From positions 1,922,001 to 1,986,000 of the forward strand of contig OX597818.1 in the NCBI GenBank assembly GCA_951406725.2: a stretch of DNA of 64,000 nt, in the 5' to 3' direction. Below, piece after piece: positions 10,621-55,646 of the stretch (position 1 is the stretch's first letter; the number at the start of each line of letters is the position of its first letter). The notes under the pieces are model-generated. The model was not told the origin of the DNA and did not search any database. It saw only the letters and a program-made list of their open reading frames with translations. Made by a program: the position numbers and the translations under genes. This DNA is from Octopus vulgaris. Lineage: Eukaryota.

Positions 10621-10773
10621 TCTTTATTTATTTGTTATACAAAAACATTTCACTAAACCCTGGAATTGGTACCTTTTAAGTAGGCTATAACATCATTGGT
10701 ACATATGTGAATTTTTGCTACCCTGGTAACTATTTTTCCGTGTTATTTGTACACATTGAAAAAATACAAATGC

Positions 10774-10828
<55 letters not shown>

Positions 10829-10858
10829 CATACATACATACATACATACATACATACA

Positions 10859-10892
<34 letters not shown>

Positions 10893-10894
10893 CA

Positions 10895-11690: not shown

Positions 11691-11711
11691 ATCTATATAA
11701 TTACACACACA

Positions 11712-12420
11712 CAAGGTGACCCCAATAATATGACATCATTTGAAATGGAAATATTTAAATAACTACATGTTCTAGGTAAAAGAAATTAAGTAGGCTTCAT
11801 GTTGACCAATAAAAGATATATTTATCAAAATTCGAACTTGAGCTTTAGAGGGATGTAGATTTTATAACCGATTTCACCAACCTTCATAGATGTTCAATAT
11901 GTGCACCGCCTGTGACACGACGCACGTTAAGTCAGTAGTCCAACTCCTGTCAAACATGCTGTAGCATGTCTTGCGTAACTTTCTCCAGGGCCTCAGTGAT
12001 TCTCTACTTGAGTTCCTCTAGGCTTGTAGGAAGAGAAGATATAAACCAGTACTTTCACATAGCCCCATAGAAAAAAAAATCACTTGGTGTCAAGTCAGGT
12101 GAACGTGGTGGCCATTTCAACAACACTTTGTCATTATTACTGGCACGCCCGATCCATCTCCCTGATAGATTCTCATTGAGATTATCCCACACAGTCAGCT
12201 TTCAGTGACGTGGAGTCCCATCTTGTTGAAAAATGAAAGTGTTCATACTCATTTGCAATCAGCTCATCAAATAACCATTTCTGAAGCATTTGTACATAAA
12301 CATCGCCGGTCGTATTTCCCTCGAAGAGAAACGGTCCATAAAAACCATTTTTACTATACACCAAAGTGTTGCACGAGGAATCTGGGTTTCCAAAGATGCT
12401 CTTCTTACACACTTTCTTGG
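11712..12420 (-). pseudogene. Tc1/mariner-superfamily DNA transposon relic (transposase C-terminus)
   Basis: Minus strand GPFLFEGNTTGDVYVQMLQKWL, then RWIGR...WPPRSPDLTPSDFF-LWGY (~12155-12060). Confidence 0.85.
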
Positions 12421-14717
12421 GCTTCGCACAAATGTTTCCCGAACCTGACTGACAATATCTTCCGATGCTGATGATCATCCAGATCCTTTTACCTTGCACA
12501 GACAGCCTTCCGCTTTGAATTTTTTGTGCTATGTCCAAATCTGCTTTCCAGTTGGTGTATCTTTATTTAATTGACTAAGACCCTCCCACCAAAATTACTG
12601 GACTTGTGCCCAAATCAGAAATCATTATTACGTGTTTTTAATTGGAGAATATTTTGTGTGTTATTTGCGACACCTTGAGGTTCGGCGGCTCAGGCGACCG
12701 CCAAGATTGCCCAGTGTGTCTTCACCGAAAAATGTATGGACTTTTAATAAAAGTGCTTTTATAGTAAAATGGAGAATTAAATCCACATCAAAAAGACAGC
12801 TAACCTCTATGATGGTACGCACAATTTCTTGTCTATACCAAGCAACATTATCCGGCTTGTTAGAAGTTTTAGTGGGGAAGTTCCACTAATATTTCTTGTG
12901 TTGATGGTTACAAATGTATTTAATAACGGTGAGAGGATTTCTATATTTATCCCAGGACAAATTTTTTCTTGGATGGTATTCTATATTATCGTATATTGTC
13001 GGGCATCGAAGAAGAGTGGGACAAAATTAGTTACCGGGGTAAAATTAGTAATTTCTGATTTCTTATTTTCTTCCTACCTGTTTGAAATCATTACATTGCA
13101 AGTACTGTATCATCCCTTCGTACTGTTGCATCACTTTTAGGAGTAAAGATTGGTCAGCATAGTTGCTATATTTGAAGTTGAGAGAGGTTAGAACATAGTC
13201 AGGTGGCAGGTACTTTTTTTCAAAAATTTTTTCTCAACATTGACCCGATTGTAATGTAGGTTGCTAATAAAATATCAGGATAATTTTTTATCTTTAACAA
13301 TCAATATTCATCCATTTCGATTCGATAAAGATAATGTGCCAGTAAAGTACTGAGGTCGACGTAACTTATTAACCTCTCCTACAAAATTTCAGGCTTTGTT
13401 CTTATAGTAGAAAGAATAATTATTAAGAGCGACTTGAGGAAAATTTAGCTGTTATTTCGAGCAAGTCAAGCAATCACGACAGGTTGCCTCATCAGCTCGA
13501 ATCACTTTCAGATCCTACATATTACTTTCCTTCACCTAAAAATTTGAAAATCTTATACCTAGAAATGAAGTCATTAACTGCATAGGTTGCTCTCCTTCTT
13601 GCTATAATTCTTATTCTTGTGGAAGTAATTTTGTATTTTTGCACTTGAAAACTATTTGACTAGAAATCACGTGATTTTTTTCATTCTTTTCAGGATTAGA
13701 TCTTTTAGTTTTTAGCTTCCTGGTACATAGTTACCGTAGAAATATTTTCATGTCTAGCATGATAGATCTCTATATTTGCATCTGTTAACAACTCTTTTGA
13801 TTTTACTTCAATGTTGTCCATTGAAAAGCTTAAAGAAGAAGGCATGATTTTGTTTCATGTAGTTCATTTGGTACATTTGTTATCTCGTCATAGAAGTCAC
13901 ATCACGTTTCGATTACTCGCAAATGCGGATAAAGTTTATTTTCTTTGCAACTAACTCAAACTTAAGAACAAGATAAACAAATATTGTCCTTCAATCTGTT
14001 TGCGGGTAATCCATAGATATTGTCAATGTAAGACGATTAAGTAAATAAAATAAGACCTCATTGAACGTATCTCTTACTTTTGGGGGATTACGTTGCAAAG
14101 AATGACAGAACTGAAAGATGTTTTTATAAATAACTGGACACAGTTTTCACATGTTGTTTATAGAATGTTTTTGTATCATTGTAAAAGTTTATGATTATTT
14201 TTGTGCATTTAATGATTTATGAACTACGGCTGAATTTCTTTTTTCAATTTAGAATATATATATATATAAAGAGAGGGAGAGAGCACGGGAAGATAGGAGG
14301 AGAGGAAGAGAGAGGATGCAGAGAGACAGAGAAGTGTATTATAAAGAACAATAAGCTTTCCGTGTTCTGTTGCAATAAAACATCGAAATCACATTGAATA
14401 CATTGTTACGAATCATCATAACTAAATATACTAACACAGAACAAACCTAGATGATTGATTGATTGACCGAAGGATTAATCAAACAATCGATTAGTTAATA
14501 GGTTAATGATTTTATTAATAATATCAAAGAAAGTGAAAGCGAGCCAGTGCGTGTGTTTATTATTGACATAATGACCCTCTCGAGAAACATGATATGATCA
14601 AACTGCTTTTTGTGTTTTATATATGTAATATTATTTCTATAATATTTTTATAGAATACTTTATATACGTAATATTATCATGAGATTATTTAATGATATAT
14701 ACATTATATTGTTATTA

Positions 14718-14816
<99 letters not shown>

Positions 14817-15504: not shown

Positions 15505-18500
15505 GCTCCAAGTAAGTTTAGTCTAAAACTTTTGTTTACACCAGTTTTGGTGCCGTTTATTCGTTTGGTCCCAAGTTGTTAATAGAAATACCAGGAACCT
15601 GTCACTAATTTTCTGTGTTTGCTTTGCCCTTCGCTGGGCTACATTCGGTCCACCAATTAAGTTCGGTGGGTGTTTAATTCAATACACTTCAACAAGATGG
15701 CGGAGTACATCTTGAAAGAACTAAGATAAAAAAACAACCTCTCCCGCAGGTCCCGCTGATGATTTCCCTCCCCTTCCCTCCGTTACTGGCAATAATACTG
15801 GTGAGGGGGAGGAGGAAAAGGATGGAGAAAAGTGCAGCAGCAGCAATGGCAACATCGACAACAGAAGTGGTAGCAGTGACAGCAACAGCAGCAGCAGAGA
15901 CAGCGACAGTGACAGCAACAGAAGCAGTGACAGTAGCAGCAGCAGTGGCAGCAGCAGTGACAACAGCAATAGCAGTTACAGCAGCAGCAGTGACAATAGC
16001 AGCAGTGGTGGTGGTAGCAACAACAATGCGAGAAACAGCAACAGCAGCAGCGGTGGCAATGACAGAAGTAGCAGAGATAACGTTTTCGTTAATAATGCTA
16101 CGGATTTTGGCGAAAAGAAAAATAATCCAACAATTGAAGGCGGAGTGGAGGGTAATAGCGGTGACGGTGTTGGCGAGAGTGGCAACGGTGGAAGTGGCCA
16201 CAACTACACCATCTCTACCAACATCAACAGCATCATAACAACAAATACGACGACAACAACTACAAAAACAATAGCAAAAATAAAAGGTTTGATGATGTAG
16301 CGAACACAAAGAGAGAAATGTTTGCCATCGGACTCGATGAAGCCCAGATGCAACATCTGTGGAGTCACTAACCACCTGAGAGCTTTCTGTCCCAAAAGGT
16401 TGGGAGGTATGCGGCTATGCCTGCAACCTACATCGCACCCCCAAAACAGCAACAGCAACAACAGAGACCTTCTAATAAAACGGTAGCCTCATCTCCAACA
16501 ACAGTAGACGCACCACTACCTCAACCAAATCCACCAATGCACTCATAACCACATGTAGTCCCCAAAAGAAAGCTCAGTCACCAATACGCAAACACCAAAT
16601 TATGTGCTCGTGAGGAGAGCCAACAAAAATTTTTTGACTTTCATAGCAAGAAACAAGGGGATTGAGAGAGGGGGTGTAATTTACGACACCATCACCCTTA
16701 GGGTTCCAGATCACTTAATGCTACTCAAACCATACAAAGAAATTCAGAAGGATTTCCCGCATGACGTGGGAAGGTCAAACGTTTGTGCTACGAAAAGGCT
16801 TTTAGCCCGTTTCCCAGAGGCTGCCAACAGCTCCAAGAGGGTAAGTAAGCTCACTCTTTTTTTTTCATTTCCTCAACCCTTTCGTGTCGTTATGGCGATT
16901 GTCAGAGTGGGCTGTGTAATTGACCTCAGATCGCTAGGCTTGGATGTGATAGCAGCCAGTGAGATTAGGATTTCCGACACGCGATCTTGCATCCCTTTTC
17001 GACGATTATGAGATCTGCGCATCTCTTAGTTAGCCCGGAATGGGAGGCGGGATGGCAGTGCTATTTAGGAAAGGCCTGAATCTCGAAGTTCGGACAATCT
17101 TCCGGGAACCGGAGGGTGGGTTGGTGGTCCTGGATGTAAGCGACAGTGAAGGTGGTGCCTTTAGACTAGTCGCTGTGTACACCCCACGGAAGCAAGGCAG
17201 CCAGATTTCTTCAAACATTTGGAAGTTTTCCTTGGGTCATCACGCTCTTTAATGTTAGTGGGTGACTAGAACGCCATCTTGGACGCACGCCTGGATAGGA
17301 GAGGGGGGATTAAAAGCCTCACAAACTTGCTCAGTCGCTTCCAGTTGACTGACAGGTACCGACTGGATTTCCCGAATGCGCCAATATGGACATGAGCGAA
17401 CCGCATCGGATCTTCTAGATCGTATCTAGATAGAGTATTTTGTAGGCCTGTAGATAGAATTAGTATACGTTCTCCACGTTTCAAAGTCGTCAGCTACACG
17501 GGCCATAAATTTGTGATCTGTACGGTTGATATAGATAGGATCCAGAGACAAGGCCCCGGATACTGGAAGCTGAACGCATCCTTCCCGGTGCGCCAAACTC
17601 TCAGAGACCGGGTTAGCAAGCTAGTCCATCGAGAGTTGGCAGAGGCAATCGTCAACAGCCGTTAGTGGATAGCCCTGAAAAGGGGTATTAGAGTAGAGGC
17701 AGTAGGTTCTAGTAAGGAAATAGCGTTTGAGGAATCTAGGATAGAGGAAAACCTGGTTAGGAAGCTAGAAGAGGCGCTTAGGAAAGGCGTAGCGACCGAC
17801 GTGCTAGCGTTGAGATTGGCTCAAGCACGAATGTTGTAGTGCCAGAGCTAGGGCGCATGCACAGAGGCCGAAGGGGACGAAAGCCGTTCGATGGGCTCTG
17901 GTGGCAGAGGCGCAACATGGAAACAAAACAACAATTCGGTCCTTGGCGAGATGTGATGGATGCATGATAACCGTGTCCAAGCTGATGTGTGCAGAATTTC
18001 AGCAGTACTTCGCCGAACTGTAGGAGCGCGAGATGGTTCTGTGACGGTGGTGGATTTCACCTCCTATCTCAGTGGCATGCAGCGCCTCTCAGCCAGGGAG
18101 GCGGAGTTCTACAAAATGCTGATAACAGCTGAAGATATACAGAACGCATGAAGGCCTGCGCAAGAGAGAAGTCTCTGGGGCGAGATGGTCTGCCTTTCGA
18201 GCTTTATTTTCATATGCCAGACTTGTTTGATGGTCTCTCGGCAGACGTCTACCATAACTGGCATCAGAACGGGAGAATTCCCAGGGCTGTGAGCCGTGGA
18301 GTGGTGGTGCTGTTGAGGAAGGTGCCGAACGAGGGGGACAAAATTGATCATTTTAGGCCTATAACTCTGCTGAATGCAGATTATAAGATTCTGGACAAAG
18401 TGTTTGCCAAGAGGTTGGCACTTGTCGTCAATAAGCTGGTTGGTGACTCGCATACATGCGCTATCCCAAACAGAACTATCCACAAACTCCACCACACGCG

Positions 18501-19766
18501 GAGAGGGTGGCTAAGGAACCTAGCATGGGTGAGGTCCTGATCAATTTGGATCAATCGAAAGCTCTTGATAGGGTTACCCACCAATATTTGGAGGCTGTTC
18601 CTGCAGCAGCGGGTTTCGGTCCTGTTTTCAGAGGCTGGATCGCTGCAATGTACTGTGACATTTGTTCGGTGGTTAAAGTAAATTGCCACCAATCGGAATC
18701 GTTTAGCATCGCTCTTTCGGTCCGTCAAGGACATCCACTCTCACCTCTTTGGGGCGTATTGGCTCTCGAGCCATTGCTGCGGAAGCTGAATATTTCGAGG
18801 GGCATCCCGCGTGATCTAGGATGCGAAAGTTTCGTGTTGGCTTACCTGGACAACTCGGATATCTCGTAAATCGAGGCAGTGCACTCTGCTCAAAGGGAGT
18901 ACGAAGCTGTGACGGGAGTAAAGATAAACCAGAAGAAGTCGGTGGGCCTGCAGCTCGGCACCTGGAGAGGCAGGTCCATGCCAACCGACAGCATTGTAAG
19001 GCACTGCACGAAAGGACCGGTTAAACTGCTCGGGGTCTGGTTTGGTCGAAACTGTCAGATGGACAAGAACTGTGGGAGGTGACGAGGGTGGCCAATCTCA
19101 ACCAGAAATAGGTAGAGAGGACTCTGAAGGGTCGGGAGGAGGTGGCGAATGCGTACATCACTTCTGTCATCTACTACTGCCTGACCGTCGTCACTTGCTC
19201 CACTTCGTACATGATAAAGATGGAGTGCTTGCTCGTCCACTTTCTATGGAAGGGACGTATTCCGCTCATCAGATGGTATATCTGCTGTCAACAGCCGCTA
19301 AGTGGAGGACTGAGTATGCCGTGGATAATGATGCGCAAACATGCGCTGAGGCTGAGACATCTCCAGCGTTTTCTTAACGGTGAGCAGGAGTGGTCACCGT
19401 TCGTCAAACAGGACTTTCCGCAGCTCGTCTCATTGATGGAGCTAGTCCTGGCTCAAGCGTAGACCAAGAAAGTGCGCTTGGTACCTGGAGTGTCCGTCAG
19501 CTGGGCAACGCGGTCGGTGGAAGTGCCATCATGGAGTTCTATAGAGGATTAGTGGAGGGAAAGTGTGACGATGCACTCGAGAAAACTCTGGGCGTCGACA
19601 GGGATGAGCTAACTGGCAATGCTACCGAGGAGCTTTGCCGGTTCCAGACAAGCTCTACAGACACGGAAGTGCTATCAGACTAACCTGTCAGAGGTGTTCT
19701 CAGGGCGATAAAACCGTCCTACATGCACTTGCCCAGTGTCCGTGCATTGCTGAACTCTGGAGCTTT

Positions 19767-19961
19767 ATTTACATTTGATGGATATTTGTCCTCATCTTGT
19801 TTGTTAACAACGTTTCGGCTGATATACCCTCCAGCCTTCATCAGGTGTTTGGGGAAAATTTCGAACCTGGGTTCTCATTCCTAAGGTATTTTTCGATGTA
19901 GTGGTTAAGAGCGCGGGCTACTAACCCCAAGATTCCGAGTTCGATTCCAGACAGTAACCTG

Positions 19962-20059
<98 letters not shown>

Positions 20060-20230
20060 CAACATCGAAAAATACCTTAGGAATGAGAACCCAGGTTCGA
20101 AATTTCCCCAAGACACCTGATGAAGGCTGGAGGGTATATCAGCCGAAACGTTGTGTTAACAACAAACAAGATGAGGACAAATATCCGCCAAATGTAAATA
20201 ATGTACATAATTCCTTATCTCTTAAATATA
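19767..20230 (+). mobile_element. Composite non-autonomous element: inverted HHR arm / tRNA-like head / (CAA,TAA)n / HHR arm
   Basis: 19765-19899 is the reverse complement of 20062-20201; duplication gaactYtggagcttt at 19752-19766 and 20231-20245; the Tx1 ORF2 resumes after it. Confidence 0.85.
20112..20157 (+). ncRNA. Type I hammerhead ribozyme (PLE-type, palindromic stem III)
   Basis: GACAC-CTGATGA-A-GGCTG(gagggtatat)CAGCC-GAAAC-GTT-GTGTT; stems I and II pair; inverted copy at ~19806-19848. Confidence 0.8.
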
Positions 20231-20840
20231 GAACTTTGGAGCTTTGTCGAACAGCTGTTGTCATGTGTAGGACAGGTCTGGTTATCAGCCAAGTCCATTG
20301 TGAGGATCGCCCCGCCGTCTTCTTTTGGCTGGGGGGGGGGAAAGGCAGATTTCCTCTGCCTGGTGGCTATAGCGAAAGAGGTAGTGTGGTGGACGAGGCT
20401 GAAAGGACTGACGACATACACTTTCCTCATCGCCTTTTTCAAGTTCCACTTGAGAAAGAAAATGAGAGTAGAGAGGGAAGTACAGCCCCCAGTAATTTTG
20501 TGGGTGAATGTTTCGAAAATGGCTCGTATGAATGGGCCTATTCTGAATATTTGTCTGTAAGCTGGAGCAGTTGAGGGGAAGAGGGCTGCCTACCTGGCTT
20601 GCCCTTGGCAGTCGGGATGACCAGGATGTGTGGGGTGCCCTGGTTGGCCCTGGGTAGAACTCCACTCACCCCACTATTGGGGAATTTTTGTTAACTGTTT
20701 TTGTTTTCTACGGTTTACACATTTTCCGTTTTAGACCCAACTTATCCCTTGTTTTGTATTGCCCCTATATATTTTTGTGTTCAGCCCTTGTAGCCAATAA
20801 AAAAGGATTATAAATAAAAGAATTAATTATTAATAAAATA

Positions 20841-21061: not shown

Positions 21062-23905
21062 TTTAAAAAAGGATTGACGTAACTCTTCACAAAGGTAAAC
21101 AGTCAAGACGAAGAGCGCGATTCGATTGTAAGTTATTTTATTGAACGATATTTCAACAGTATGTCTGTCTTTGTCAAGTTCAAAATAAGAAGCGATAAAA
21201 ATTCAGAAATTTAAAGGTAAAGTATGAATGAGAGCAAGTAGCGTCCACACGTTGATGGAATGACATCATCAGTTTTAAAGTCTTTAACAGGCGAAAAGAA
21301 AGAAAAACACAGAAAAAAGAAGACGACAGAAAAAAAGAAAGAAAAAGAGAGAAAGAAGAATATTTAATCAAACAGCTTTGTATAAATTTGATGATATTTT
21401 GCTGTCATCTTATTCATCCCTCCAGGGCATGATGTTAATAACCCGCAAACATATTTCCCCTCATACATTCTGAGAAGTGAAAGCGAAGTAGATTCAGAAT
21501 ATTTTCTGAGAATATGCACTTTCAAGTCTTCTTCAAAATTGCAGCCGCTTGAAACGAAATGTTCAGCAAGTTCTATCGAACTACTGTTATTGTGCCTGAC
21601 GTCGAATCTGTGGCCATTAAACCTTTTGTTTAATTGTTCCGTTGTGCAATTAACATAAATTAAGTTGTGTTTTGTGCATTCTGTAGCGTACACCAAATGG
21701 GAATCTTTACATGTTCCACCTTCTGTATAAATCATAACATTTCTGTTATGATTTCTGATGGAATTCACTTCACTCATGTGAACACAATGAACAGGGCTTA
21801 CCTCGGATCTTTTCGGTTTGAACGGCAGTTTTTTCTAGCGGTGTCATATGAAATTGTCACCCATAATTATGACCCTAGTATCGATCTATTGCATTTCAAT
21901 CTCTTTTAGGGTATGGGTTAGGGTTAGGGGTGCGGGAATGGGTATCTTTTTTTCTTCAGAAATGTAAATAAACCCAATCTGTTTCTAAAATGAGGGACAT
22001 ACAGCACATAATGTTTTCACCTCAATAGACGTCATTGATTGGTTGAAATAGCAGAAATTGAAGAAAAAAACAACAAATATCTTACAAACTATAGAATTTT
22101 CTCAATAAAGATGTTTTATAAACACATTCTACAAGTATACGAAGTTTAAAAGTGTTTAGTTACGTGGAAAATATTTTTAAAAACTGCCGTTCAAACCGAA
22201 AAGATCCCTTACCTCTCTTGCAGCTGTTCTTTAAGGTACAGCGTGTAGATACTTCAATGTTCGTTTTCTTGGAATCAGATATAGAGGTCAATAATTCTCT
22301 TATATTCTTATTCCGTCTAAAGGCTACAATAGGCGGCTGAGGAAATATCTGTTTGAAGCGAGGATATTTTTTCGCCACATGCTGGTAACTTTCATGCAAC
22401 ACTTTTGAAATGCCAGCGAAATGCCGGTGCCAGTTAATCACTAAAGGAATTATGTCATCTATTGTATTGTGTTTGCTAAAATTATGTCTGTAGGTTTGAC
22501 TATCTTTGTCAATCTTAGCTATTTCATTTGCTATTTCCTTTAATCGTGATTCACTGTAACCGCGTTTGGCATAATGACATACGAAAGCATTTGTATGTTT
22601 CCAGTATTCCAGTATTTTGAGGATAAAACGCGTTTGTACTGACATAAGGATGTCAGTACAAACGCGTTTTATCCTCAAAAATTTGAATTTCGGATTTGAC
22701 CGAATAAGATGATGTGGATGATCGGAGCGGCGGTGGAGATAAATGTGGGATGACGTGGGCTTGCAAAATAATTCTGCCTCCAGAAAACTTGACTTTAGTG
22801 TCCAAAAATTCAACGCTAGTTTTTGAATACCTAGACGTAAATTTTATGTTGAACTTAAAGCCATAGTTTCTAGCATAAAAGTCACAGAAATGCAAGAAGT
22901 CTATTAAACTATCCTGTGATCCTTCCCAGACAAAAAATACATCGTCAGTGAACCGTAACCAGAGTATTGGTTTATGACCATGAAGAGATTTGAATGTCTT
23001 TAGTAATTGTCTCGAATTTCATCATGAAGACATTAACGAAATTAACTGCCATGGGGATACCCATGGCGCAACCCTTTGTCTAGTGGTAAAATCTTTGTCT
23101 AAACTTCATTGTGTTACTTTCTAACCCAAACCTCAATAATCTACAGAGAAAATTTGATGGAATACTTTTGTTTGACCGCTTTTGGAAGGCATCCATGCAT
23201 GCTTCTACCCCCTCATCGTGGTCAATATTGGGATATAAGGAAGAAACATCCATGGTTACCAAAAAACAGTTCTCAATATGGCCTCGGTGCTTGAAAAAGT
23301 TATTGATTTTAGATACAAAATCAAACGTATCCCGAATATAGGAACTTGATCGTTTTGCTGCGGGGAGTAGAAAGCTATCTAGCCATTCCGAAATTTTGGC
23401 CGTGCAACATTCATATCCGCTGCAAATTGGGCGCATTGAAGGAAATCTTTCGAACTTTTTGTGTATTTTAGGGAGACCATAAAATACAGGTGTTCTTTCT
23501 GACCTTAAAATCTTAGATTCAGCCTTATTAACGAAATTGTTTTCCTCCATTTCCAGAATTATTTTGTCAAGTTCCTCTCTGTAATTGGGGTTTGGATCGA
23601 CAGGTAATTCTTTATATGAAGTTTTGTCATGTAAAACTTCTTCACAAGCCGAAATATACTCACTTTTGTCCATAATTACTATAGCGCCTCCCTTATCCGC
23701 CATCTTAATAACAATAGAATTGTTATTAGCTAGACGTTGGAGTGCGTAACGTTGGGAATTTGTGAGGTTGTCCCAGGATTTCTTTCCACTTGTTTTAAGG
23801 CTTTCTCTAATGCCTGCTTGACAAGATTCAAGAAATTCCAGTAGTGCTTGTGAACGTTTAAGGATGCTGAACAAAACACCCATATTTTCAGAAGTGTATA
23901 ATTCA
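21061..23905 (-). pseudogene. Penelope-like element (RT + GIY-YIG), frameshifted
   Basis: IVIKMADKGGAIVIM, FYGLPKIHK, RPICSG, LVTMDVSSLYPNI, WLRFTDDVF, EFLDT; GIY-YIG HLVYATECTKHNLIYV...PGGMN; degenerate HHR-like TTGACAA...GAAA at ~21150-21180. Confidence 0.9.
21805..22207. mobile_element. MITE with 28-bp TIRs and 8-bp TSD inserted into the PLE
   Basis: TIR ggatcttttcggtttgaacggcagtttt at both ends; TSD cttacctc at 21797-21804 and 22208-22215. Confidence 0.92.
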
Positions 23906-24030
23906 AATCCCAACTGGTTAAGGTCAAAGGTCTGACAAGCAAATCTGTGATGTTGAGCAGAATATGTACATGATAACACTTCCAATCAGTTAAGATCAGA
24001 AGTCATGAGAGCCAGTGCCTGGTATTTCTT

Positions 24031-35227: not shown

Positions 35228-36235
35228 AAGGCGGCGAGCTGGCAGAAACGCTAGCACGCCGGGCGAAATGCGTAGCCGTATTTTGTATGCCGTTACGGTC
35301 TGAGTTCAAATTACGCCGAGGTCGACTTTGCCTTTCATCCTTTCGGGGTCGATAAATTAAGTACCAGTTACACACTGGGATCGATGTAATCGACTTAATC
35401 CGTTTGTCTGTCCTTGTTTGTCCCCTCTATGTTTAGCCCCTTGTTAGCACCTTGTGGACAATAAAGAAATAGGAAACGTTAGCATGCCGGGCGAAAGGCT
35501 TAGCGGTATTTCGTTCAAATTCCGCCGAGGTCGACTTTGCCTTTCATCCTTTCGGGGTCGATGAAATAAGTACCAGTTATGCACTGTGGTCGATATAATC
35601 GACTTAATCCGTTTGTCTGTCCTTGTTTGTCCCCTCTGTGTGTAGCTCCTTGTGGGCAGTAAAGAAATAAGAAACATTAAGCACACCGGGCGAAATGCGT
35701 AGGTGTATTTCGTCTGCCGTTACGTTCTGAGTTCAAATTCCGGCGAGGTCGTCTTTGCCTTTCAACCTTTCGGGGTCGATAAATTAAGTACCAGTTACGC
35801 ACTGGGGTCGATATAATCGACTTAATCTGTTTGTCTGTCCTTGTTTGTCCCCTCTGTGTTTATCCCCTTGTGGGTAGTAAAGGAATAGGTATTTCGTCTG
35901 CCGTTATGTTCTGAGTTCAAATTCCACCGAGGTCGACTTTGCCTTTCATCCTTTCGGGGTCGATAAATTAAGTACCAGTTACGCATTGGGGTCGATGTAA
36001 TCGACTTAGTCCGTTTATCTGTCCTTGTTTGTCCCCTCCATGTTTAGCCCCTTGTGGGTAGTAAAGAAACATGTATTTCGTCTGTCTTTACGTTCTGAGT
36101 TCAAATTCCGCCGCAGTGGACTTTGCCTTTCATCCTTTCGGAGTCGATAAATTAAGTACCAGTTACATACTGGGCCAATCTAATCGACTGACCCTCTTTC
36201 CCAAAATTTCGGGCATTGTGCCTAGAGTAGAAAGG
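35228..36235 (+). mobile_element. Nested/tandem SINE array (5 units) bounded by one 16-bp TSD
   Basis: TSD aatatgactctcccca at 35212-35227 and 36236-36251; four units end in the type-2 tail, the last in the type-1 tail. Confidence 0.9.
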
Positions 36236-39864: not shown

Positions 39865-40400
39865 TAAACTAAGTATGAGTTTCTTTATTGTTGAATCCTA
39901 ATCTTCCGAATAATAAACAACTTATTGAGAAATCATTCAGGAGACATAAAGCCCTTGTGTAATACGAATTCAGCATCGTGAAAAATAATTGGTAATCCTA
40001 TATGTCAGCTGCAATTCAAGTAGTAACTGATATAAAATTATATAAGACTGTATATGATCTTCATAAAAAAGTGGTATTTAGTCCACACCATTCCTCAATA
40101 ACTTGTTAAAATATAATGACTAGTCGTATTAAAATTTCTAGTTGGTTTCATAATTCCAACCGTGGCTCTAAGTCCTGGATTGTTTCGCTGACCAATATGG
40201 ATCCTCTTCCGGGAATATTCTTTATTGAAGTATACGGAACTCCGAATACGTTCATTGTGAAAACAATGCTTATAAAGAGCATTGTCACAGTATGTTAAAA
40301 ATAAGTTTATATCAATATGAAGATAAAAAAAAAGCCCTGCTAAATTAGTCGGTGCATTGGTCATGGCTAAATAGATGACATATCGTATATATATATATAT

Positions 40401-40893
40401 ATTTCTTTATTACCCACAAGGGGCTAAACATAGAGGGGACAAACAAAGGTATTAAGTCGATTACATCGACCCTAGTGCGTAACTAGTACTTATTTTAATC
40501 AACCCCGAAAGGATGAAAGGTAAAGTCGACCTCGGTGGAATTTGAACTCAGAACGTTGCGGCAGACGAAATACTGCTAAGCATTTCGCCCGGCGTGCTAA
40601 CTTTTCTGCCAGCTCGCCGCTTTAGATGACATATCGTATATATATATATATACATATATCCTATTTCTTTACTACCCACAAGGGGCTAAACACAGAGGGA
40701 ACAAACAAGGACAGACAAACGGAATAAGTCGATTACATCGCCCCAGTGCGTAACTGGTACTTAATTTATCGACCCCCGAAAGGATGAAGGGCAAAGTCGA
40801 CCTCGGCGGAATTTGAACTCAGAACGTAACGGCAGACGAAATACACCTACGCATTTCGCCCGGCGTGCTAGCGTTTCTGCCAGCTCGCCGCCT
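40401..40893 (-). mobile_element. Two tandem type-2-tail SINE copies
   Basis: Each runs from (a)ggcggcgagctggcag to cccttgtgggt...aaagaaat on the minus strand; separated and flanked by tagatgacatatcgt. Confidence 0.9.
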
Positions 40894-41028
40894 TAGATGA
40901 CATATCGTGTGTGTGTGTATATATATATAAATATATATCCTATAGTAGCAAAGAATGTCATATACATACAAGCATACATACATACATATATAAACGCGTA
41001 TGCATGTACGTTTGAATGAATATATGTA

Positions 41029-43755: not shown

Positions 43756-44790
43756 AACTTAGTGCTGAAAAGCGAAGAGAACAATATTCTACGCATCAGT
43801 AGTAAACGCCTCAGGAAGCACTCCTATACAATCCTAAAACAGCCGGACTAACAGACCTCAAAGAAGACCTAGATGTGAAACGCCCAGCATACCAAAAAAA
43901 GGCTATGCATAGGTATATTTCCCAAAGACTTGAAGCCGATAGTAATAGTGGCATGAAGCGAAGTCTCTCTTGGACTCTCGACCGCTACATCACATCACAC
44001 TTCGAAGGCGATGTATTTGCAATCCAAGAACAGGAAATTGCTACTAAATGCTTAATAAACAAAAGAGGCAGCGAAACCCTTTAGTTTCAAGATGCAACCG
44101 AAAATGTAGATTGTCATATTTCCGTGGAAGACATTACACATGTGATTGACACCTGCCTAAAAATGTCATCAAAGTACTACGTCCCTTTGCGACACGATGT
44201 TGTCACAAAAACAATGTACAAGGGTATTCAGAAAAAAAATTGTCCTCAAATAAATATAGGGAATCCCCCTGTTATTGAATACATACATACACAAACATCA
44301 ATAAACAGAATACTGATGGAATATTTCCTTCAAAACATCTGTGAAGTGTAAACATAACAGACCAGATATTGTTGTTTGAGATAGACAAAAAAATTATGTA
44401 CCGTCATAAAGGTCAGCTGTCCTACTGAGGTGAATAACTCTTTGGAAATCAAAAAGAAATAGAATAACTGTGGACAACTGCTTCGAAACCTCCAGCTTCT
44501 ACATCCAGATTGTTGATTCACATGTATACCAAATAATTGATGCACTTGGTTTTGTGAGTAAATGCCTAAGAGACAATCTGGATAAGCTAGGGGATTACTT
44601 AACTATTTCGCACATTTCAAATACAATCTGTAAATGAAAAAGTAAAAATATGCAAGACATTTCTCAAGTTTAAAATGTGATATTGTTTTCATTATCTACA
44701 TTCCAATTATGGAGTTTTTTTTATTTTTGTTAGAAACCAGCTCCTTCTTCAGAGGAAGAATTTAATTAATTAAAAACAGAAGAGTATACA
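43756..44790 (+). pseudogene. RLE-type (R4/NeSL-like) non-LTR retrotransposon 3' fragment
   Basis: SLSW...TSHFEGDVFAIQEQEIATK, CRL...EDITHVIDTC, PLRHDVVTK, HNRPDIVV. Confidence 0.8.
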
Positions 44791-44946
44791 TATACTTCTA
44801 CCTATACGTATATGTTTGTGTGAGTTCCACAAGCTCGCAAAATAACTTTACGTGGATGGAGAAGAAGAGAGAGAGATGCCTTCTCATAACTATGATGATG
44901 ATGACGATGATAACAAGAGCACTCTGAGAGCGCGAACCTTCGCCAA

Positions 44947-46747
44947 TGTTTCTTGGCACTACGGCCACAACACAGAGGGGACACTATAAAGACAGACACA
45001 ACACCACGGTGGGGACAAAAATCATAAAACGAATGAAAATGAGATGTTATATAAAAATGAAAAATGAAATGGCTGCATAGACCCCACTCCCATGCAGTAT
45101 CATTTGAACGTTTATATAAACTACTTACAATCGTTCTATCATCTTATTGTTCTTTCTTAATCTCGCTTTTTCCTCTCTTTTTTTAAATGAAACAATTTTA
45201 CTTTTTTCCTTCTTTCTTCAATAAAACAATTCTACTTACTTTTTCCTTTTTAATATCACATGAAAGGTTCTAAATCTTTTAGCTCCATTACTGGTGGCAA
45301 TTCATCAAACTATACCATCACTCCTGGTGGGTCAATCCCTTCTCCACACATGTCTTTTAGTCTGTTGTAGGTGTCATTGTCAACCACAATGGCCTTCACA
45401 TTCTCGGAATACACATCTGTGGGCAACTTGACTCTTATAATATGTTTAAACTTTAATACTTTCTTTTCAGTGTCTTTGCTTTTTGCATACGTCACAAAAT
45501 TCCATCGAAATTTTCCTTTTCTTATTTTTTTCTCTTTTCCTGCTCCGTTCCTAGCACCTTCTTCTTTTCTTCCACCTCTCTGAACAGTCTCTCCAGTTGC
45601 GTTTCTAAATTTTCTTCCTCCACTGGAACAATCGGTGTTTTCACCAATGTCTTTTCCTTATGCAACTCCTCCTTGAACACTTCTTCAAGTTCCTTTTCGC
45701 TTACTTTATCCACCACCATTTCGTCTTCCGTCCTTCAGGTCATCTCCTTTTCCATCTCTTCTTTCTTCATTTTCTGCTGCTCTGGCGGAGAGCTCACTCT
45801 CCCACTTCTCTTTCTTTTTTTAAACACCGTGAACCCCTCATCCGTTGCTTTCTCCTTTATCTCGACCTGTACCACCTGGTCCGTGCTCTCCTGCCTCTTC
45901 GTCTGCTTTATCTGCTGTTCCCTCTGGGGGCACATTGCCTTCATGTGGCCCTTTTCCCCACATGTATAACATATAGGCGGCGTGCCCGCCACCACCACTC
46001 TCAATCTTACGTCATCGGACAGCACTATCTCTTCGACAATTCTGTTTAGGTCTTCCACTGTTGCTTGAACGGTTAACTTTATTCCATATCCCCAGTTGTT
46101 AAATCTTTGGGTTCTTGTGGCCTTCAGTATCTTGACCTCCTCATTTATGTCATACATTTTGGCTGTCATCAACCATGCTTCTTTCAGCTCTGGGGGCACT
46201 TTGCCAACTCGCACCCTGGCCACACGTTTGCCATAGTACGATGGCAAAAGTACCCATTCTTCAGATCTTATTGCCTCCGTGGAATTGCTTCCTCTTCTGA
46301 TGCAATAAGCACCTCCACAGTAGCGTACTTTCTCCCTTTTATTTTAAATGTGGTTAGTCTTTTTATATTCTTCAAACATTCTTCAATAGCCTCTATTGTC
46401 GCTATTTCTATTTTCCTTGTTGCTATCTTCATTGTCTTCCATATCACCGTTCTTTTCATTACATTGGTTGTTCCGTCTCTTTCCAGCAACTTCTCGCATT
46501 CCTTCATTTTTCGAGGTTCAACCTTTATTTCTCGTACCCCCAGCATTTACATGTCTGCCCCTTTTCCAGTTGCAGCCACATAACTGTGGCCACCTGCTGG
46601 CATTTTCTCCATTTTTCCCACAACGGGAAAAAACAACAATTCAAAATAATACAAGCAACAATTTGAACAGTAACAATCAATCAAACAAATATTTAACTTA
46701 CGTCTAACATGACAAAAAAACAACTCAAACCGCCTGTGTGGTCACAT
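44947..46747 (-). mobile_element. ORF1-only Tx1-derived retroelement A (~1.8 kb)
   Basis: Frameshifted ORF1 with CYTCGEKGHMKAMC knuckle and C-terminal FDELPP; no APE/RT; 16-bp TSD cgcgaacctYcgccaa at 44931-44946 and 46748-46763. Confidence 0.85.
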
Positions 46748-46780
46748 CGCGAACCTCCGCCAAGGCAACATCAACGTCCT

Positions 46781-48589
46781 GATTTCTTTTATTATGCACA
46801 AGGCACAACACAAAAACAGACAAAACAATACAATGGGTTACATAAAAACACATACCGTATGAAATTATTGATACAATGAAAAATGAGGATGGAATTACTT
46901 ACCTGCCCCCCCCCCCCATAAGCAGGCAGTTTCATTTTACTGTTTTTAAATAAAGTTTTACTAACAGTTCAATATCCTGTCTTGTATCTGTTGGTTTTCC
47001 ATTTTTTCCCTTTTATTTTTAATTAAAACAAAGTCACCAGTATAATCCAATAAATCTTCGAATACCACCATCGGCGGCAACTCATCGAAACGAAACTGTA
47101 CTATTGTCACCTCTATCTTTTCCCCAAAACAATTCCTTCAACCTTTCTCTTCTTTCTCTTTCCAGCAGAATAGTTTTCATACCTTGCACTCTGTGAGCGC
47201 CAACTTAACCCCAACCACGTTCTTCATCATCGCAATCCCTTTTTCCATCTCTACACCTCCTGTGTACTGTATCATAGTTCTTATATTTTTCCCTTCTGGT
47301 GTCACTCTCTGCCTTCCCTCACCAATCTCCTTTACTGTTGCTGGCATTCCTATCGCTGTATGTCTTTCACTCTTTGTTGCTATCATCTCTCTTTCACCTT
47401 CCTCTTTCTTCTGTACTTCTCCTCCTTGCTAGTTGATGGTAACGGTTTCTGCCTTCGCTCCTCGACCTTGTCACTTACACGTGTTGACCCCTCATTTCTT
47501 CCCTGCTCGTTCGCCTTTCCTTGTTTTCCACTCTGCGTCTCCTCTCCACTTCCCTTTCTCCCCTTCCTAGGACCCCTCGGTGGTGAGTCCGTGTTACTTT
47601 TCTTCCTCTTCACTACTGTATACTGTTCTTCCATTTTTTGCTCCTCTACGGTTGAACCCTCTTCCTCTTCATGTTCCCTCTCTATCTCCTCCTCTTCGCG
47701 CTTCCAGGGACACCCAGCCTCCATGTGTTCCCCCAGCCCACATTGACAGCATACGGGAGATCCCCCCTCCACCACAACTCCCAACCTCGTCCCGTCCGGC
47801 AACACCAACTCCTCCGTAATCTTGTGGAGGTCCGGCAAACTGATGTAAAACGATACCTCAAGGCTGCATTCCCACCAGTCCACCTCCGCAGCTCTTGCAA
47901 CTTTCAGCATTTTGGTGTCCTCATCCGCACTACAAAGGATGGCTTCCACCAGCCACGCCTCGTCAACCTCTGGGGGCACACCACCAATCCCCAATCCGGC
48001 CGCACATTTGCCACAGTAGGCCGGCAGCAGCACCCACTCAGCTGATCTCAAAGGCACAGTAGAGTGTCCCATCTCCTCTCCCTCACTCACGAAGCGCACC
48101 TCCACTGCGCCGCACTCCCCTCCTCTGGTTCAGCACATCGCTAGATCTTTGACCTCTCTCAAGCACTCCTCGACCGACTCCACTGCTGCCATTTCCACTC
48201 CCTCTGCTGAAACAGACAGCTTTCTATATATTATTTTCCTTCTCTCTGTCCTTTCTACAACTTCCCTAGGCGGTACCAGCCTCAGGCTGTCCCCTCCCCC
48301 TCAACAGCTCATTTAACCTCCCGAAATCCGTTTCGTTCAATTGAACTTCTCCAACTTTCAAGACATCCGCGGCTAGACCCCTCCCATCCACAACCGCCTG
48401 CTGGCACTGGTCTACCTTGCATAATATTATCCACAAATTCACCCATAAATGGGGAAGAAATACAAAAAGTCAGGCAACAATAAATTCAACAATTTAGTAA
48501 TATAACAATTTAACAATAACAAGACTCACATGGAGCGAACACACATCAAATGCAACAGGGAACCAAATGACTCGACACAACACTAAGGA
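46781..48589 (-). mobile_element. ORF1-only Tx1-derived retroelement B (~1.8 kb)
   Basis: ORF1 homologous to A (VPPEVDEAWL, LGVVVEG, CCQCGLGEHMEAGC, FDELPP); 15-bp TSD caacaYcaacgtcct at 46766-46780 and 48590-48604. Confidence 0.85.
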
Positions 48590-48915
48590 CAACACCAACG
48601 TCCTCTCAACGATTTTTTAAAATGAGAATATCTGAAATAAAATCGACTTCTCTCACAAACGAGAATACTAAAAATGAACCCGACCGCTCTCAAAAATTAA
48701 ATTAAAAAAAGCCAGAGAAATCATCCAGAATCTTTGTTCGGTAGCAGATCGATCCCAAAATCTAATCAATTCGTGCAAGTCACGAGCCCAAACATCCCTG
48801 AAAGCTTCATCCGAATCCATCCAGCAGTTCTTGAGAGATCTTGTCCACGGACAAACAAACAAACAAACAAACACGACTGAAAACAATACCTCCCTCTTCG
48901 CTATGGCGGAGGTAA

Positions 48916-49819
<904 letters not shown>

Positions 49820-49820
<1 letters not shown>

Positions 49821-49960
49821 GTTTCAAATTTTGCCACAAGGGCAGCAATTTTGGGGATGAGTCGATTACATCGACCCAGTTACTATATCAACCTCGAAAG
49901 GATGAAAGGCAAAGTCAACCTAAGCGGAATTTGAATTCAGATCGTAAATACGGACGAAAT
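49820..49960 (-). mobile_element. 3' part of a SINE split by a Tx1 LINE (head at 54767-54826)
   Basis: Minus strand atttcgtccgtatttacg...ttcaaattcc...ctttgcctttcatcctttcgagg. Confidence 0.85.
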
Positions 49961-52900
49961 ACCAATTTCTTTATTGCCCACCGGGGGCCAAACATAGAAA
50001 TGGACAGAACAACTGATGGGATCAGTGAAGCGATATGATTTTATATATAGTGACTTTAAAAATTTAAATACAATATATAAAAAATCGAATGGAATTAACA
50101 ATACAAAGACAAAACAAATGAAGCGATGATCAGGCCACGCTCCGACCCCACAAGCCCCGATCTACCGCTGGTACCTTTTTTTTCTCCTTTTTTTCCCGTC
50201 TATTAACACGGTTCCTTGCACGCACAACACTCGTGCAACATGCTTCCATCTCTTTTGGAGCGTACACTCCGACAGACATCTCTTCTCCAGCCACAGTTTC
50301 CTTTTCAAATGAAAAGAAAAAAAGTTCGTAAATTGTGGCCAGAGATAAAGTTGTCTGTCTTAATTCCTTATATCCTAGTCTTCCATACTGCCTCTTTCGC
50401 TATTGCTACAACCGTAAGAAAACAATTCTTACCTTCGTTCGTTAAAACTCCCGGTGGGTCAATTTTTACAATTGACTCAGTCGACAGCTGTACTCTTCCT
50501 TCGCCGGACAACAGGTGTTCAGCATAAGCCCACATTTCAGTTATGTCCGGACACTGATCAATAATGTGAGGGGCGGTTTCCCTGTACCCCCCCCCCGCAT
50601 CTTGGACTGGTCGGCGACTGACGTTTACCATGTCTTGCGAGCTTATCCCAAACGGGCAAGGCACCTCTTAGCGTTACCAGGTTATGGACTTTTGGAAGGT
50701 GTCCAACGTTCCCAACCCGAATGTACGGTGAAACAAGCTGTCCAGTTGAATAAACACAAGACCTAGAGTCGACCTCAAGCCATCGTCGCGTTCAGACTCT
50801 ACCAACCCACTATATAAAATCCGTGTGGAACCCCCACCGCTGGCGTTGTCCGAGCGCCGGAATAGCAAGAGGGCCTTACGGCACTCTTTATGCCACTCAC
50901 TCGACCTCGGTCTACGAGAACACCAGGCTTCCTGTTCGCAAAAACTTTTGAACTCGGAGAACATTTGTCTGGCCAGCGGAGACCATACCCATTCACTATC
51001 TTGGAGAATCCAGAGGTGCCTCAACCTCAACGCATGTCTGCGCATCATTAACCAGGGCATCCCTAAACCTCCCGTTAAAGGCTTTTGACAGCAGACAGAG
51101 CGTTTCACAAGTGGCGACCTGCCCTTCCACACAAAGCGAAAGAGCTGTCTCTCCAACCTGATCAACCACGAATCCGGACAGGGTAGGTAATGACCGATGC
51201 GGTAAACACATTGGCCACCTCCGCCCCTCCTTTCAGGGATAACTACCGCCAAGACCAGGTCTTGACTACTGCAGCCACCCTGTTCAATACCTCCGTCCAG
51301 TTCTTCTCTATCTGGAAGCCTGGTCCAAACCAAACTCCCAGCAACTTAACCGGTCCCTCCGTCCAGCGCTCAACAATGCTATCTGAAGGCATCGATTTGC
51401 CAACCCAGGTGCCGAGCTGCAAGCCGACCGACTTTTCCCGGTTAATCTTTGCTCCTGTCACCTCCTCGAAAGCCTCAATAGTCTCACCCACTTCACGTAG
51501 GCGTGCTACTGAGGTTACGCTGATAGTGATATCATCCGCGTAAGCCCTAACAAACTCCTTTAGACCTGGTTCTCTCAGGATGCCACTCAACCTTCACAGT
51601 AAGGGCTCGAGAGACATCACATACAAAAGTGGTGAGAGCGGACATCCTTGGCGAACCGAGCGTCTGATGCAGAACGGCTTCGAAAGGAACCCGTTCACCC
51701 GAACTATCGAGTCAATGTTGTGGTACAAAGCGATAAACTACCTGAGGAAGCCAAGGCCCAGGCTGAACCGCGCAAGCACAGTCGCCAGGTATCGATGGTC
51801 AACCCTATCAAAAGTCCAAATGTACCAATACCCCACCTTTGCCAGATTTATTACCAACCCTCTCTATGATATAGCGAATAAGATGGAAGGTATCCTGAAT
51901 GGTTCTGCCCGGGATGGTACATGTCTGTGCTTCCCCGACTATACCATTCGCGACACGCGCCAACCTTTTTGTTGAGACCTTGGCCAAAATCTTCACTTCT
52001 GCGTTTAAAAGAGTGATGGACCTGAAATTCCCTATAACGTCCCCCTTTTCCGGGTCCTTTCTGACCAACGTCACTACCCCCCGGCGCACAGAGCTGGGGA
52101 TAAACCCATTCTGTTGCCAGTTCGCGTACACGTCAGCCAGTATTTGCCCGAACAAGTCTGGCATACATTTATACAGCTCGTATGGAAGACCATCAAGTCC
52201 CGGCGACTTACCCGCTTTACAGTCGGCCAAAGCCTCCATCACCTCCACAGGCGTGATTGGCCTTTCGCAAGACTCAACATCCGACCCCGAGAGACATGGC
52301 AGCCCGGCAAGAAAGTCCTCGAGAGCTCTCTCACCACCAGGAACACCGCTACCCTCGAACAGCTGGGCGAAGTACTCCCGAAAGGCCTCACGCATTTTCT
52401 CGGGTTCGTTTACCAAGACATCATTTTGATTCGTCAAAGACCGAATAGAGGAACTATTTCCTTGCCGAGATTCCACCACTCGGGCCCATCCAGCGACCTT
52501 GATTCCTTCACTTCCCATGTATTGGGCTTCAAGATGCTGGTTTAACTCTAGTCTTTTCACCCTCGCTTGGTCCGCATTACCAGTCCTCCAGGCTTCTTCT
52601 AGTTCCTTAACTAGACCATCTATTCTTCGTCCCTTCTTAGCTAAACTTATGCTAAACCTAATAGACTCATATTTGATGGCTCTTTTTAGGGCGTACCACC
52701 ATTTGTTATTAATGACGGTACCTGTTAATGCCCTCTGTATTAACATCTTGATCCGCTTTCTGTACTCCTCAATCGCCAAAAGTTTCCAGTAGCCAGATCC
52801 CTGACTATGCAACTTATCTACCGTCAGTTTACAGGTAACCATCTTGTGGTCATTGTAGCTGACTAGAAAAACCTGTGGACACACGACTATGGACTTATCT

Positions 52901-54766
52901 GTTTCTCTAATTATAATCTTATCTAGATATGTTCTGGAAGACCCGTCACTATTTGACCACGTCCACTGTGGAGTGTTCGGGCGTTCCAGCCTATAAGGAT
53001 CTGCTAGCTGAAATTGACTTAGCAGATCTCGTAAGTCCGGGTTACATTTTCTGTTCATGTCCGAGCCAACACAATCTGTGTGTGCTACACATATTGTTTT
53101 AAAGTCTCCAAACAATACTAGCGAATGCGATGTGGCTAGGAACTTGCCCAGGTCACGAAAATAATCAGTTTGCGGGCCCATAATGTTAGGTGCATAAATA
53201 GTGACCAGCCTGATTGTCTTGCCACAACTGAATGTCAGGTCAAGAACGACCAACCTGCGTTCTGTGTCAGAAAAGAACAACTTTTTCTCGGCTTCTCGGT
53301 TTCATTTTAGTAGGATCAATACTCCTCCCCCACCTCCCGCCCGACTCGGAGAAACGTATTTCTAGTAGCCGTTCAGGAAGGGGAGCAGATCTCTTGGCCT
53401 TTTCACCCGGGTTTCCGTTGCAACAATTACATCCAAGTTTCTCGACCTGATGGCATTTAGAAAGCGCCCTTGCTTCCAGCTTGACATCAGGCCACGAACA
53501 TTTATACAACCAATGTGAATAGACGTGACTTACCTTGTGGAGAGGGATTCTCCACTTTTTCGTGACTCAGGGTCGGAGATGGTAAGCCTTCAAACATGGA
53601 TTGGTGAAAATCAAGTCTCCCTGTTGAGACCGATTTTTTATATGTGTAAAACAACATATTGTACGTTTTTTCGTCCAATTCGTAAAATTCATAGTTTTTA
53701 TATTTCTCTGACAGTTCAATTAATCGAGTTGCCGATTTTGGGGTTTTTATTTCCCGCATTAAATCTTCGTTTTTACTGTATAGTGCAGCTATTCCTCCGC
53801 TCGTCACCCCCTCCGCCTTCCTCGGTCTGTCTCTCTTGGCTGTTTTTTTTTGGGGGGGGGTTGTCTCAACTCGCTCTGCTTTTGCTGGTTCGAGCCTTCC
53901 ACTTTCCTTTTGTTGTTTATTTTTCCTTTAGTTTCTCTCTCTCTTTCTTTCTCTTCGCCGTCTGATTCTTCTACACCTTCTTTACAATATTTTTTAATGT
54001 GACCCAGTTGGCCACACTGGAAACATCGGGCGGAATTCTTGGTATTCTCACTTTTGACGTTCTCATTCCCATGTAAATTGGGATTAACATTATGTCTTCC
54101 GACTCTAAAGATTTTATAGAGTGTTTTTGTGCAGTTTCTGCATTTTTGAACCTCACCACGATGGTACCAAACTTCTTCCCTCTGGCTAGATATGTAATGT
54201 CCTGCCAGACATTTTTCAATTTTTTGTTCACATATTTTAATAATTTTACGAGCTTTTAAGCAAAATGTCTTAAAAATAATGATTTTCTTTTTTTCCTCCG
54301 TTAATTCTTCTTCCTGTATTTCCACTTTTACTATTTCATCTCGTTCTGTTATCATATCTTTATATTTTAATAATTCTTTTATGTCAGTTGTCGCGCTCCA
54401 CCACCAGCCGCTGACGCAAAACTTTTCTTTTCTTCATTTTGGATGGTCCTTTTTTTCTGTCTTCCTATTGATGTTCGTAACTCTTGGTAATGTTGGAAAT
54501 TCGCTTTCCGACACATCAGAAACGTTGTCAAAAATTATGCTTTCTATTTTCTTTGCTTCTCTTTCAATCGATGATTCGTCCCCCGACGAAGAACACGAAC
54601 TTTTCCGCATCTTGCCGGCAATTAAAGGGGAAAACCACAGATAGCTTTCGACAAAAAAAATATAATACAATTTTTTCAACAATAAGTCCAACAATAGGCA
54701 CAACAAGAAACATAACAATTAATAGAAACTTACGAACACACTCCAACAATAAATTTTCAGTAACAG
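49961..54766 (-). mobile_element. Tx1-clade LINE, near full length, decayed, inserted in a SINE head
   Basis: ORF1 knuckle CFQCGQLGHIKKYC; APE (TIYAPN, LFGDF, SRTYLDK, DHK, GSGYWKL); RT (KSPGLDG, FRSITLLN, AYADD, VKLLGVWF); 11-bp TSD acggacgaaat at 49950-49960 and 54767-54777. Confidence 0.92.
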
Positions 54767-54986
54767 ACGGACGAAATGCGGTTAAGTATTTTGTTCGGCG
54801 TGCTAATAATTCTACCACCTCGACTAATAATAATAACAACAGCAACAACAATAATAATATTGCTATTATTATTATTTTGGGGTCTATAAATTAAGTACCA
54901 GTGAAATACTGGAGTTAATGTAATCGACTAGTCCCCAAAAATTTTCAGGCCTTATGCCTATAATAGAAAGGCTATCATCATCGTCG

Positions 54987-55031
<45 letters not shown>

Positions 55032-55646
55032 GAAGAAGAAGAAGAAGAAGAAGAAGAAGAAGAAGAAGAGCAACAACAACAACAACAACAACAACAGCAG
55101 CAGCAGCAGCAGCAACAACAACTACAAACACACACACACACAAGACTAGAAAAGGAGAAAGTTACAAACAATATTGTGATATTTCTAATGGCTGAAGCAC
55201 ATCTGGAAAATATTGTTTAAATATTTAGAAATCTAAAGAAGGAGAGTCAGAACAGTGGAACTTGTTCATATTAAGTTACTATGGTTTACGTTACATGTCT
55301 GTCTTACATCAACTATTTATATAAAATACCCGTCTAAAAGTATTTTGATATATTTCTCTCGATCTAAAATACGTAACATTTGGGTAAGTGTAAATATTTG
55401 TAAACAGTTTTGATTTATACATTTATGAACTATCTAGTCTTTTACTCCATTACAGGCTTCAGTCATTGGATGTGGCCATGCTGGGTCACCGCCTTCGGTG
55501 GCTCTCAGCCGACTACATGACCCTAGTACATCGACCTTGGAAAAATGGAAGAAAAGCGAAAATGACCTGAAGATGTAGATCAAAAACAGCACACCTCATT
55601 TGGTTCGGCGCGCTACACTACATTTGTATGTATAAGCGTATGAGTA

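Follow-up and report, generated by a model that had tools for sequence, protein, structure and literature searches.

Within a 64,000-nucleotide (nt) stretch of the Octopus vulgaris genome (contig OX597818.1; the window, whose numbering is used for all positions), we studied a locus, 44912..48915, at which two retroelements, A and B, interrupt a copy of a transposon (Table 1). We consider it likely that A and B, both decayed, represent two multi-copy families of octopus retroelements with open reading frame 1 (ORF1) and a 3' tail and without ORF2, and that they spread as non-autonomous long interspersed nuclear elements (LINEs) by borrowing the ORF2 protein (ORF2p) of a full-length Tx1-type partner that would cut a subterminal inverted repeat (subTIR) at the 3' end of this host.

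Nested insertions in a Helentron-type host

As a preliminary description of this DNA had stated, A and B are each about 1.8 kb long (1,801 and 1,809 nt), carry their own target-site duplications (TSDs; 16 and 15 nt, one mismatch each) and were inserted 17 nt apart, measured between their 3' junctions on the empty host, which without them is ~364 nt long. Both have the orientation of the host. We aligned contigs (Logan) of 4 of 24 public runs (X1, X2, X7 and X17; four samples under four organism labels), with the likeness threshold set to 80%. In contigs that derive from other host copies, 44947-48589 is missing and 44946 is joined to 48590 with two letters between, which is what the TSDs of A and B predict for an empty site. 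Separate TSDs, together with empty sites in other host copies, mark both elements as insertions of the target-primed reverse transcription (TPRT) type. Their 5' untranslated regions (UTRs) measure 135-167 nt. The octamer accgcctg had been proposed as a motif common to these UTRs; it lies 12 nt from the 5' end of A and 190 nt into B, within codons 8-10 of ORF1, and at least one common 8-mer occurred in 910 of 1,000 shuffles, so we discarded it as a UTR motif. Rfam gave no matches in 44700-55100.

The host was read by the published layout of HINEs, which are non-autonomous Helentrons (PMC7492417, PMC4067079; here and below, citations refer to excerpts of the papers named). It has a 5' subTIR with a nearby inverted repeat (IR), a microsatellite, a 3' subTIR (46753-46763) and TT at both ends, and both flanks are microsatellite. 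Its 3' palindrome is by eye a six-pair stem with one G-T pair, whose folding is not above that of shuffles (z -0.5). This sequence layout identifies the host as a minus-strand HINE, which places the insertions at its 3' subTIR. The earlier view of two diverged elements at a subterminal repeat of a Helentron-type host therefore stands, except that the repeat is the 3' and not the 5' one. HINEs and DINE-1-like elements have in common with the host the 5' subTIR and short IR, a 4-nt microsatellite and the 3' subTIR, and likewise no coding capacity and very high copy number; their 3' palindrome and TT ends have putative counterparts in it (PMC4067079, PMC7492417). Summed contig depth over the host reached 9,000-14,000 single-copy depths in all four runs; single-copy depth was set by eye from near-identical or typical contigs, and summed depth is no copy number. 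The host pattern gave no matches in genome, viral and metagenome contig collections. Because the TSD of A duplicates the whole subTIR, the 3' end of the host is near-intact and the target regenerated.

Table 1 Features of the locus and of related elements in the window
Feature	Position	Strand	Remarks
Host HINE, 3' end	44912..44946	minus	left 3' subTIR copy 44936-44946 (one mismatch), 3' palindrome 44919-44933, terminal TT
TSD of A, left copy	44931..44946		16 nt; 1 mismatch between copies
Element A, ORF1-only retroelement	44947..46747	minus	1801 nt; own TSD, no ORF2; contig data
3' region of A, homologous to that of B	44973..45195	minus	34-nt tandem duplication (45167-45237) follows ORF1 stop
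ORF1 of A	45250..46612	minus	~453 codons, decayed; knuckle 45971-45930; C-terminal domain 45537-45253
TSD of A, right copy	46748..46763		16 nt; contains intact host 3' subTIR 46753-46763
TSD of B, left copy	46766..46780		15 nt; 1 mismatch between copies
Element B, ORF1-only retroelement	46781..48589	minus	1809 nt; own TSD, no ORF2; sense-strand A-to-G excess
3' region of B, homologous to that of A	46797..47031	minus	starts within ~10 nt of ORF1 end
ORF1 of B	47040..48422	minus	~460 codons, decayed, lower end approximate; knuckle 47751-47710; C-terminal domain 47314-47042
TSD of B, right copy	48590..48604		15 nt
Host HINE, body and 5' end	48605..48915	minus	(TTTG)n 48851-48872, short IR 48887-48893, 5' subTIR 48904-48913, terminal TT
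Element C, full-length, endonuclease and reverse transcriptase (APE/RT)	~49963..54766	minus	inside common short interspersed nuclear element (SINE); ORF2 = APE + RT
TSD of C	49950-49962 / 54767-54779		13 nt, one mismatch
Element D, decayed APE/RT	15506..20806	plus	inside SINE at another site than that of C

ORF1 and the shared 3' region

Each element holds one ORF1 with a C-x2-C-x4-H-x4-C knuckle, that of A matching Pfam zf-CCHC (E 3.4e-6) and that of B giving no Pfam match. Both reading frames stop shortly after the motif FDELPP, as first described; both, however, are interrupted by stops and frameshifts. Three in-frame stops of A are private to this copy, since in each of the four runs almost all of the depth over them has another base. 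Over their ORF1 cores A and B are identical at 53 of 119 residues (45%), and in a quick ORF1 tree they form a clade with support 87, the branch to B being long (0.64, compared with 0.22-0.26).

A phmmer search returned 382 protein matches at E <= 0.001, 150 of them listed; we fetched 154 proteins and looked up 20 of these by cluster. The named relatives among those looked up are gene models of Octopus bimaculoides and O. sinensis, and both the A-like and the B-like type of ORF1 are present in O. bimaculoides. One relative, P0005, matches the ORF1 of A from end to end, first and last residues included. The C-terminal motif also ends seven proteins of these two species (P0005, P0010, P0017, P0021, P0040, P0054 and P0071), and a profile of their C-terminal domains matches A at E 2.5e-39 and B at E 1e-17, with no match in C or D; identity between the C-terminal domain and an O. 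bimaculoides protein reaches 75%. A structure model of P0040 (74-row alignment, predicted local distance difference test score 76.6) has two RRM-like domains. Its best Foldseek matches are tandem RRMs (E 3.5e-4 to 1e-3), and the best VIA-align score (Z 8.2) marks a common ferredoxin-like fold only. By the end-to-end match, the C-terminal profile and this model, ORF1 is a complete LINE RNA-binding protein, with two predicted RRM-like domains, a CCHC knuckle and a C-terminal domain. No locus was confirmed for the ORF1 of A among 183 pattern matches in metagenomes. In the gene model P0057, an ORF1 piece of the A/B group lies inside what we take to be an RGS-domain gene.

Starting at the end of ORF1, A and B align colinearly through their 3' regions, with 159 of 214 positions identical (z = 18; none of 200 shuffles as good). 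Matching ends are not expected from two independent deletions, and a junction common to elements whose ORF1 cores are 45% identical points to one old loss: ORF2 was probably lost once, long ago. When all sense frames of the long elements C and D were used in tblastn, A and B returned ORF1 matches only, in line with the earlier statement that neither has APE or RT. The elements thus combine a complete ORF1 with no ORF2, the arrangement of an ORF1-present LINE. The 3' regions gave no significant remnant of an ORF2 C terminus, 5-20 of 40 shuffles scoring as high, and a likeness of the form FHLK...R to ORF2 C termini was not above shuffles. The read-through of P0071 past its ORF1 end resembles the sequence after the stop of A; it is of low complexity and we did not count it.

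The Tx1 assignment of A and B rests on the likeness of their ORF1 and tail to APE/RT elements. The ORF1 of C matches those of A and B at E 3-5e-5, protein P0006 matches A, B and C (E 1e-11 for C), and the tail of B resembles those of C (z 3.7) and D (z 5.3). The Tx1 name for the APE/RT elements themselves reflects a presumed likeness. The tail tip of C in turn resembles the 3' tail of its own SINE host (z 5.9).

Other copies and an A-to-G excess in B

Summed contig depth over single-copy depth was 38-47 for the body of A and 11-14 for the body of B in all four runs. Among the 32 pieces listed of 38,121, at least five diverged contigs cross the ORF1 stop of A into the 3' region (X1 record 1; X2 record 17; X7 records 25, 26 and 27), and with 33-67 differences they represent at least three different copies. 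The ORF1 end of B is crossed by at least three diverged contigs (X1 record 5, X2 record 20 and X7 record 29; at least one other copy). Near-identical contigs also cross the junction of B (X1 record 6, and X7 record 30, which is this locus), and an assembly artefact is thereby ruled out for B. The bin with the ORF1 stop of A shows no drop in depth (in X1, 2492 compared with 2515 in the adjacent bin). Both elements therefore belong to multi-copy families with a common deletion junction. Over the last 130 nt of A (44950-45100), depth rises to 4-6 times that of the body, with 10,000-14,800 in X1, which may reflect 5'-truncated TPRT copies or other families with the same tail.

The target specificity of other A and B copies is only hinted at. 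Both of the two copies in the window lie at the HINE 3' subTIR. A paralog of B (X7 record 29) extends 6 nt into the target; X17 record 13 has a diverged A 5' end that continues through the host spacer, possibly at the same locus in another species; and a 6-nt insertion was called at 44952 in three X17 contigs. In two O. bimaculoides gene models, P0071 and P0145, an A-like piece stands upstream of a B-like piece in one orientation, the reverse of the order in the window. For comparison, target specificity has been defined by more than 20% of copies being flanked by the same target (PMC4494074). Of the persistent, transposon-targeting, ORF1-only lineage proposed in the preliminary description, what holds is the multi-copy state, the junction common to other copies and to A and B, and the presence of both ORF1 types in O. 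bimaculoides; the targeting stays at the level of these hints.

B also differs from A in base composition. Its sense strand has 596 G and 539 A, against 489 G and 660 A in A, with equal pyrimidines. When the elements were compared with homologous proteins, the differences explained by A-to-G and by G-to-A stood at 44:15 for B, out of 110 differences, and at 16:21 for A, out of 99 (Fisher p 0.003); where two homologs agree, they stood at 22:4 and 10:12 (p 0.006); the contrast was weaker for single-step changes only (p 0.04 and 0.05). Among the 40 of 1,986 rows listed, sites at which other contigs mostly differ comprised 14 A-to-G, 3 G-to-A and 1 T-to-C of 25 in B, and 3, 3 and 1, respectively, of 15 in A. 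The excess in B is strongest in its 5' half. We lean, by a small measure, towards A-to-I editing of the RNA template before insertion as its source. Depletion of G on the 5' side is a mark of ADAR (PMC2873906), and we saw no such neighbour preference: the 5' neighbours of the 14 B sites are 8 A and 6 G, which counts against editing. A C>T excess over the whole stretch, considered as support, vanished after division by base counts, both purine transitions then being 1.5-fold. If the editing is real, an RNA without ORF2 was reverse-transcribed, and the animals with the most RNA editing also mark their germline DNA with it. Hyper-editing of B would show directly that RNA editing in cephalopods can leave heritable mutations in copies of LINEs.

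Mode of spread and known relatives

In the reading that we prefer, a single old internal deletion would have removed ORF2. Transcripts would start from the 5' UTR, or else from the host, whose orientation is the same, and ORF1 protein, through its predicted RRM-like domains and knuckle, would package its own RNA. The 3' tail would then recruit ORF2p of the partner, whose endonuclease would nick the HINE 3' end, with TPRT at two nick sites that are separated by 17 nt and have a stagger of 15-16 nt; by copying the whole subTIR, the TSD of A leaves the host end near-intact and restores the target.

Several observations weigh against this account. No partner was found, 0 of 48 candidates passing a search with the ORF2 end of C. 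C and D have in common with A and B only the last 50-100 nt of the tail (z 1.7-5.3) and sit in a SINE, not in a HINE, and so are not that partner. The contigs are short and none covers a whole element, loose contig ends among the rows listed are host only, and ORF2-bearing members of both families are possible. Same-site flanks in other copies come down to the few records given above, and depth in X1, X2 and X17 is 190-890 at 44952 compared with 8,300-14,800 at 44976.

The near-intact 3' end of the host makes a different course mechanically possible, in which an ORF2-deleted copy was born once in the HINE and was multiplied by rolling-circle transposition of the host, the elements themselves no longer retrotransposing. 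The TSD of A preserves the 3' subTIR and palindrome of the host, Helentrons carry internal cargo (PMC7492417), and the same alternative needed testing for SINEU-3 (Kojima, PMC4494074); common flanks are predicted by this course as well. We nevertheless regard it as unlikely, since two families with 45% identical ORF1, at two sites with two TSDs, would need to have one deletion junction. The roughly threefold difference in depth between A and B and the reverse order of A-like and B-like pieces in P0071 and P0145 also speak against it, and the 3'-biased depth and the private sense-strand A-to-G excess of B fit passage through RNA.

A and B could instead be minority deletion subfamilies of families that are still autonomous, with ORF2 lost repeatedly at one favoured junction. 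Such recurrence has a precedent in HAL1, which arose several times from L1 (PMC5753468); the extra depth at the tail of A could stem from ORF2-bearing elements, for which short contigs with host-only loose ends among the rows listed leave room. The lack of a depth dip at the junction, the several contigs that cross it and the absence of a significant ORF2 C-terminal remnant from the 3' regions make this course quite improbable. None of the 154 fetched proteins matches APE or ORF2-end queries from C, a weak point because C-like ORF1s are unfused too. Unique post-insertion deletions of full-length Tx1 elements, or an assembly artefact, are very improbable: the decay of both ORF1s and the full-length relatives close by would fit them, but near-identical contigs from other samples cross the junction of B, and the junctions are common to diverged copies and to A and B, which contradicts the unique deletion named in the preliminary description as the case against its proposal.

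Borrowing of ORF2p by an ORF1-keeping element has its closest parallel in HAL1. We class A and B as a HAL1-like ORF1-only LINE lineage. As in HAL1 (PMC5786205, PMC5753468, PMC3627910), ORF2 was probably lost internally, the 5' UTR, full ORF1 and 3' tail were kept and the elements are multi-copy; the ORF1 of HAL1 seems to have stayed open for long, with 29-44 Myr quoted for the guinea pig (PMC3627910), and that of A and B may have done so too. Unlike HAL1, they have a mollusc host, a CCHC ORF1 with two predicted RRMs whose relatives are Tx1-like elements of octopus, a 3' end without poly(A) and a defined site in another transposon. HAL1 proper is of mammalian L1-clade origin, whereas the closest named relatives of A and B, among those looked up, are octopus proteins; the ORF1 of A and B combines a CCHC knuckle with tandem RRMs that are predicted.

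Listed as ORF1-present non-autonomous LINEs are HeT-A (Jockey clade), HAL1 (L1) and Ag-Sponge (CR1 clade), with no Tx1-clade example in the text excerpted (PMC5786205, Kojima 2018). In Xenopus, the piggyBac-type Tx1D serves as the target of Tx1L, and in crocodilians Mariner-N4_AMi is that of Tx1-Mar and SINEU (PMC4494074). As with A and B, these are Tx1-type elements or passengers in a non-autonomous DNA transposon, often in tandem; they are, however, autonomous LINEs or non-coding SINEs, whereas the passengers here code for ORF1 and have a Helentron 3' subTIR as their target. In a repeat annotation of O. vulgaris, 80 L1-Tx1 families are counted (PMC13282606); the supplement of that paper has no HAL1, ORF1 or Helentron term, and the excerpt of PMC9115989 has no Tx1. 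An ORF1-only or Helentron-targeting Tx1 element did not appear in the literature excerpts surveyed, and a prior description, for example in Repbase or Dfam entries, is possible.

A and B would extend the ORF1-keeping non-autonomous LINEs from L1, Jockey and CR1 (PMC5786205) to a target-specific Tx1 type, and landing sites would come to include a Helentron end; every component is already known, which makes this an extension rather than a new mechanism. With one junction and with nick sites separated by 17 nt, the two old sister families would form a natural experiment on the reasons for retaining ORF1 in cis alongside a borrowed ORF2, and on the choice of site by the RNA tail or by the nuclease of the partner. 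A fuller picture is tentative and, in our view, rather less probable than its alternatives taken together: an old octopus radiation of ORF1-only Tx1 families that goes back to one ORF2 loss, with ORF1 under selection for tens of Myr, neighbouring sites in one Helentron 3' end, and B as a germline fossil of A-to-I hyper-edited RNA.

Elsewhere in the window, a stretch of D near 19900-20200 looks like a nested insertion. Head-to-tail SINE arrays with periods of 184-271 occupy 35244-36189 and 40386-40934, and may reflect a self-inserting SINE helped by a C-like element. Penelope-like RT and GIY-YIG-like frames were recognized by eye at 21364-23985 on the minus strand.

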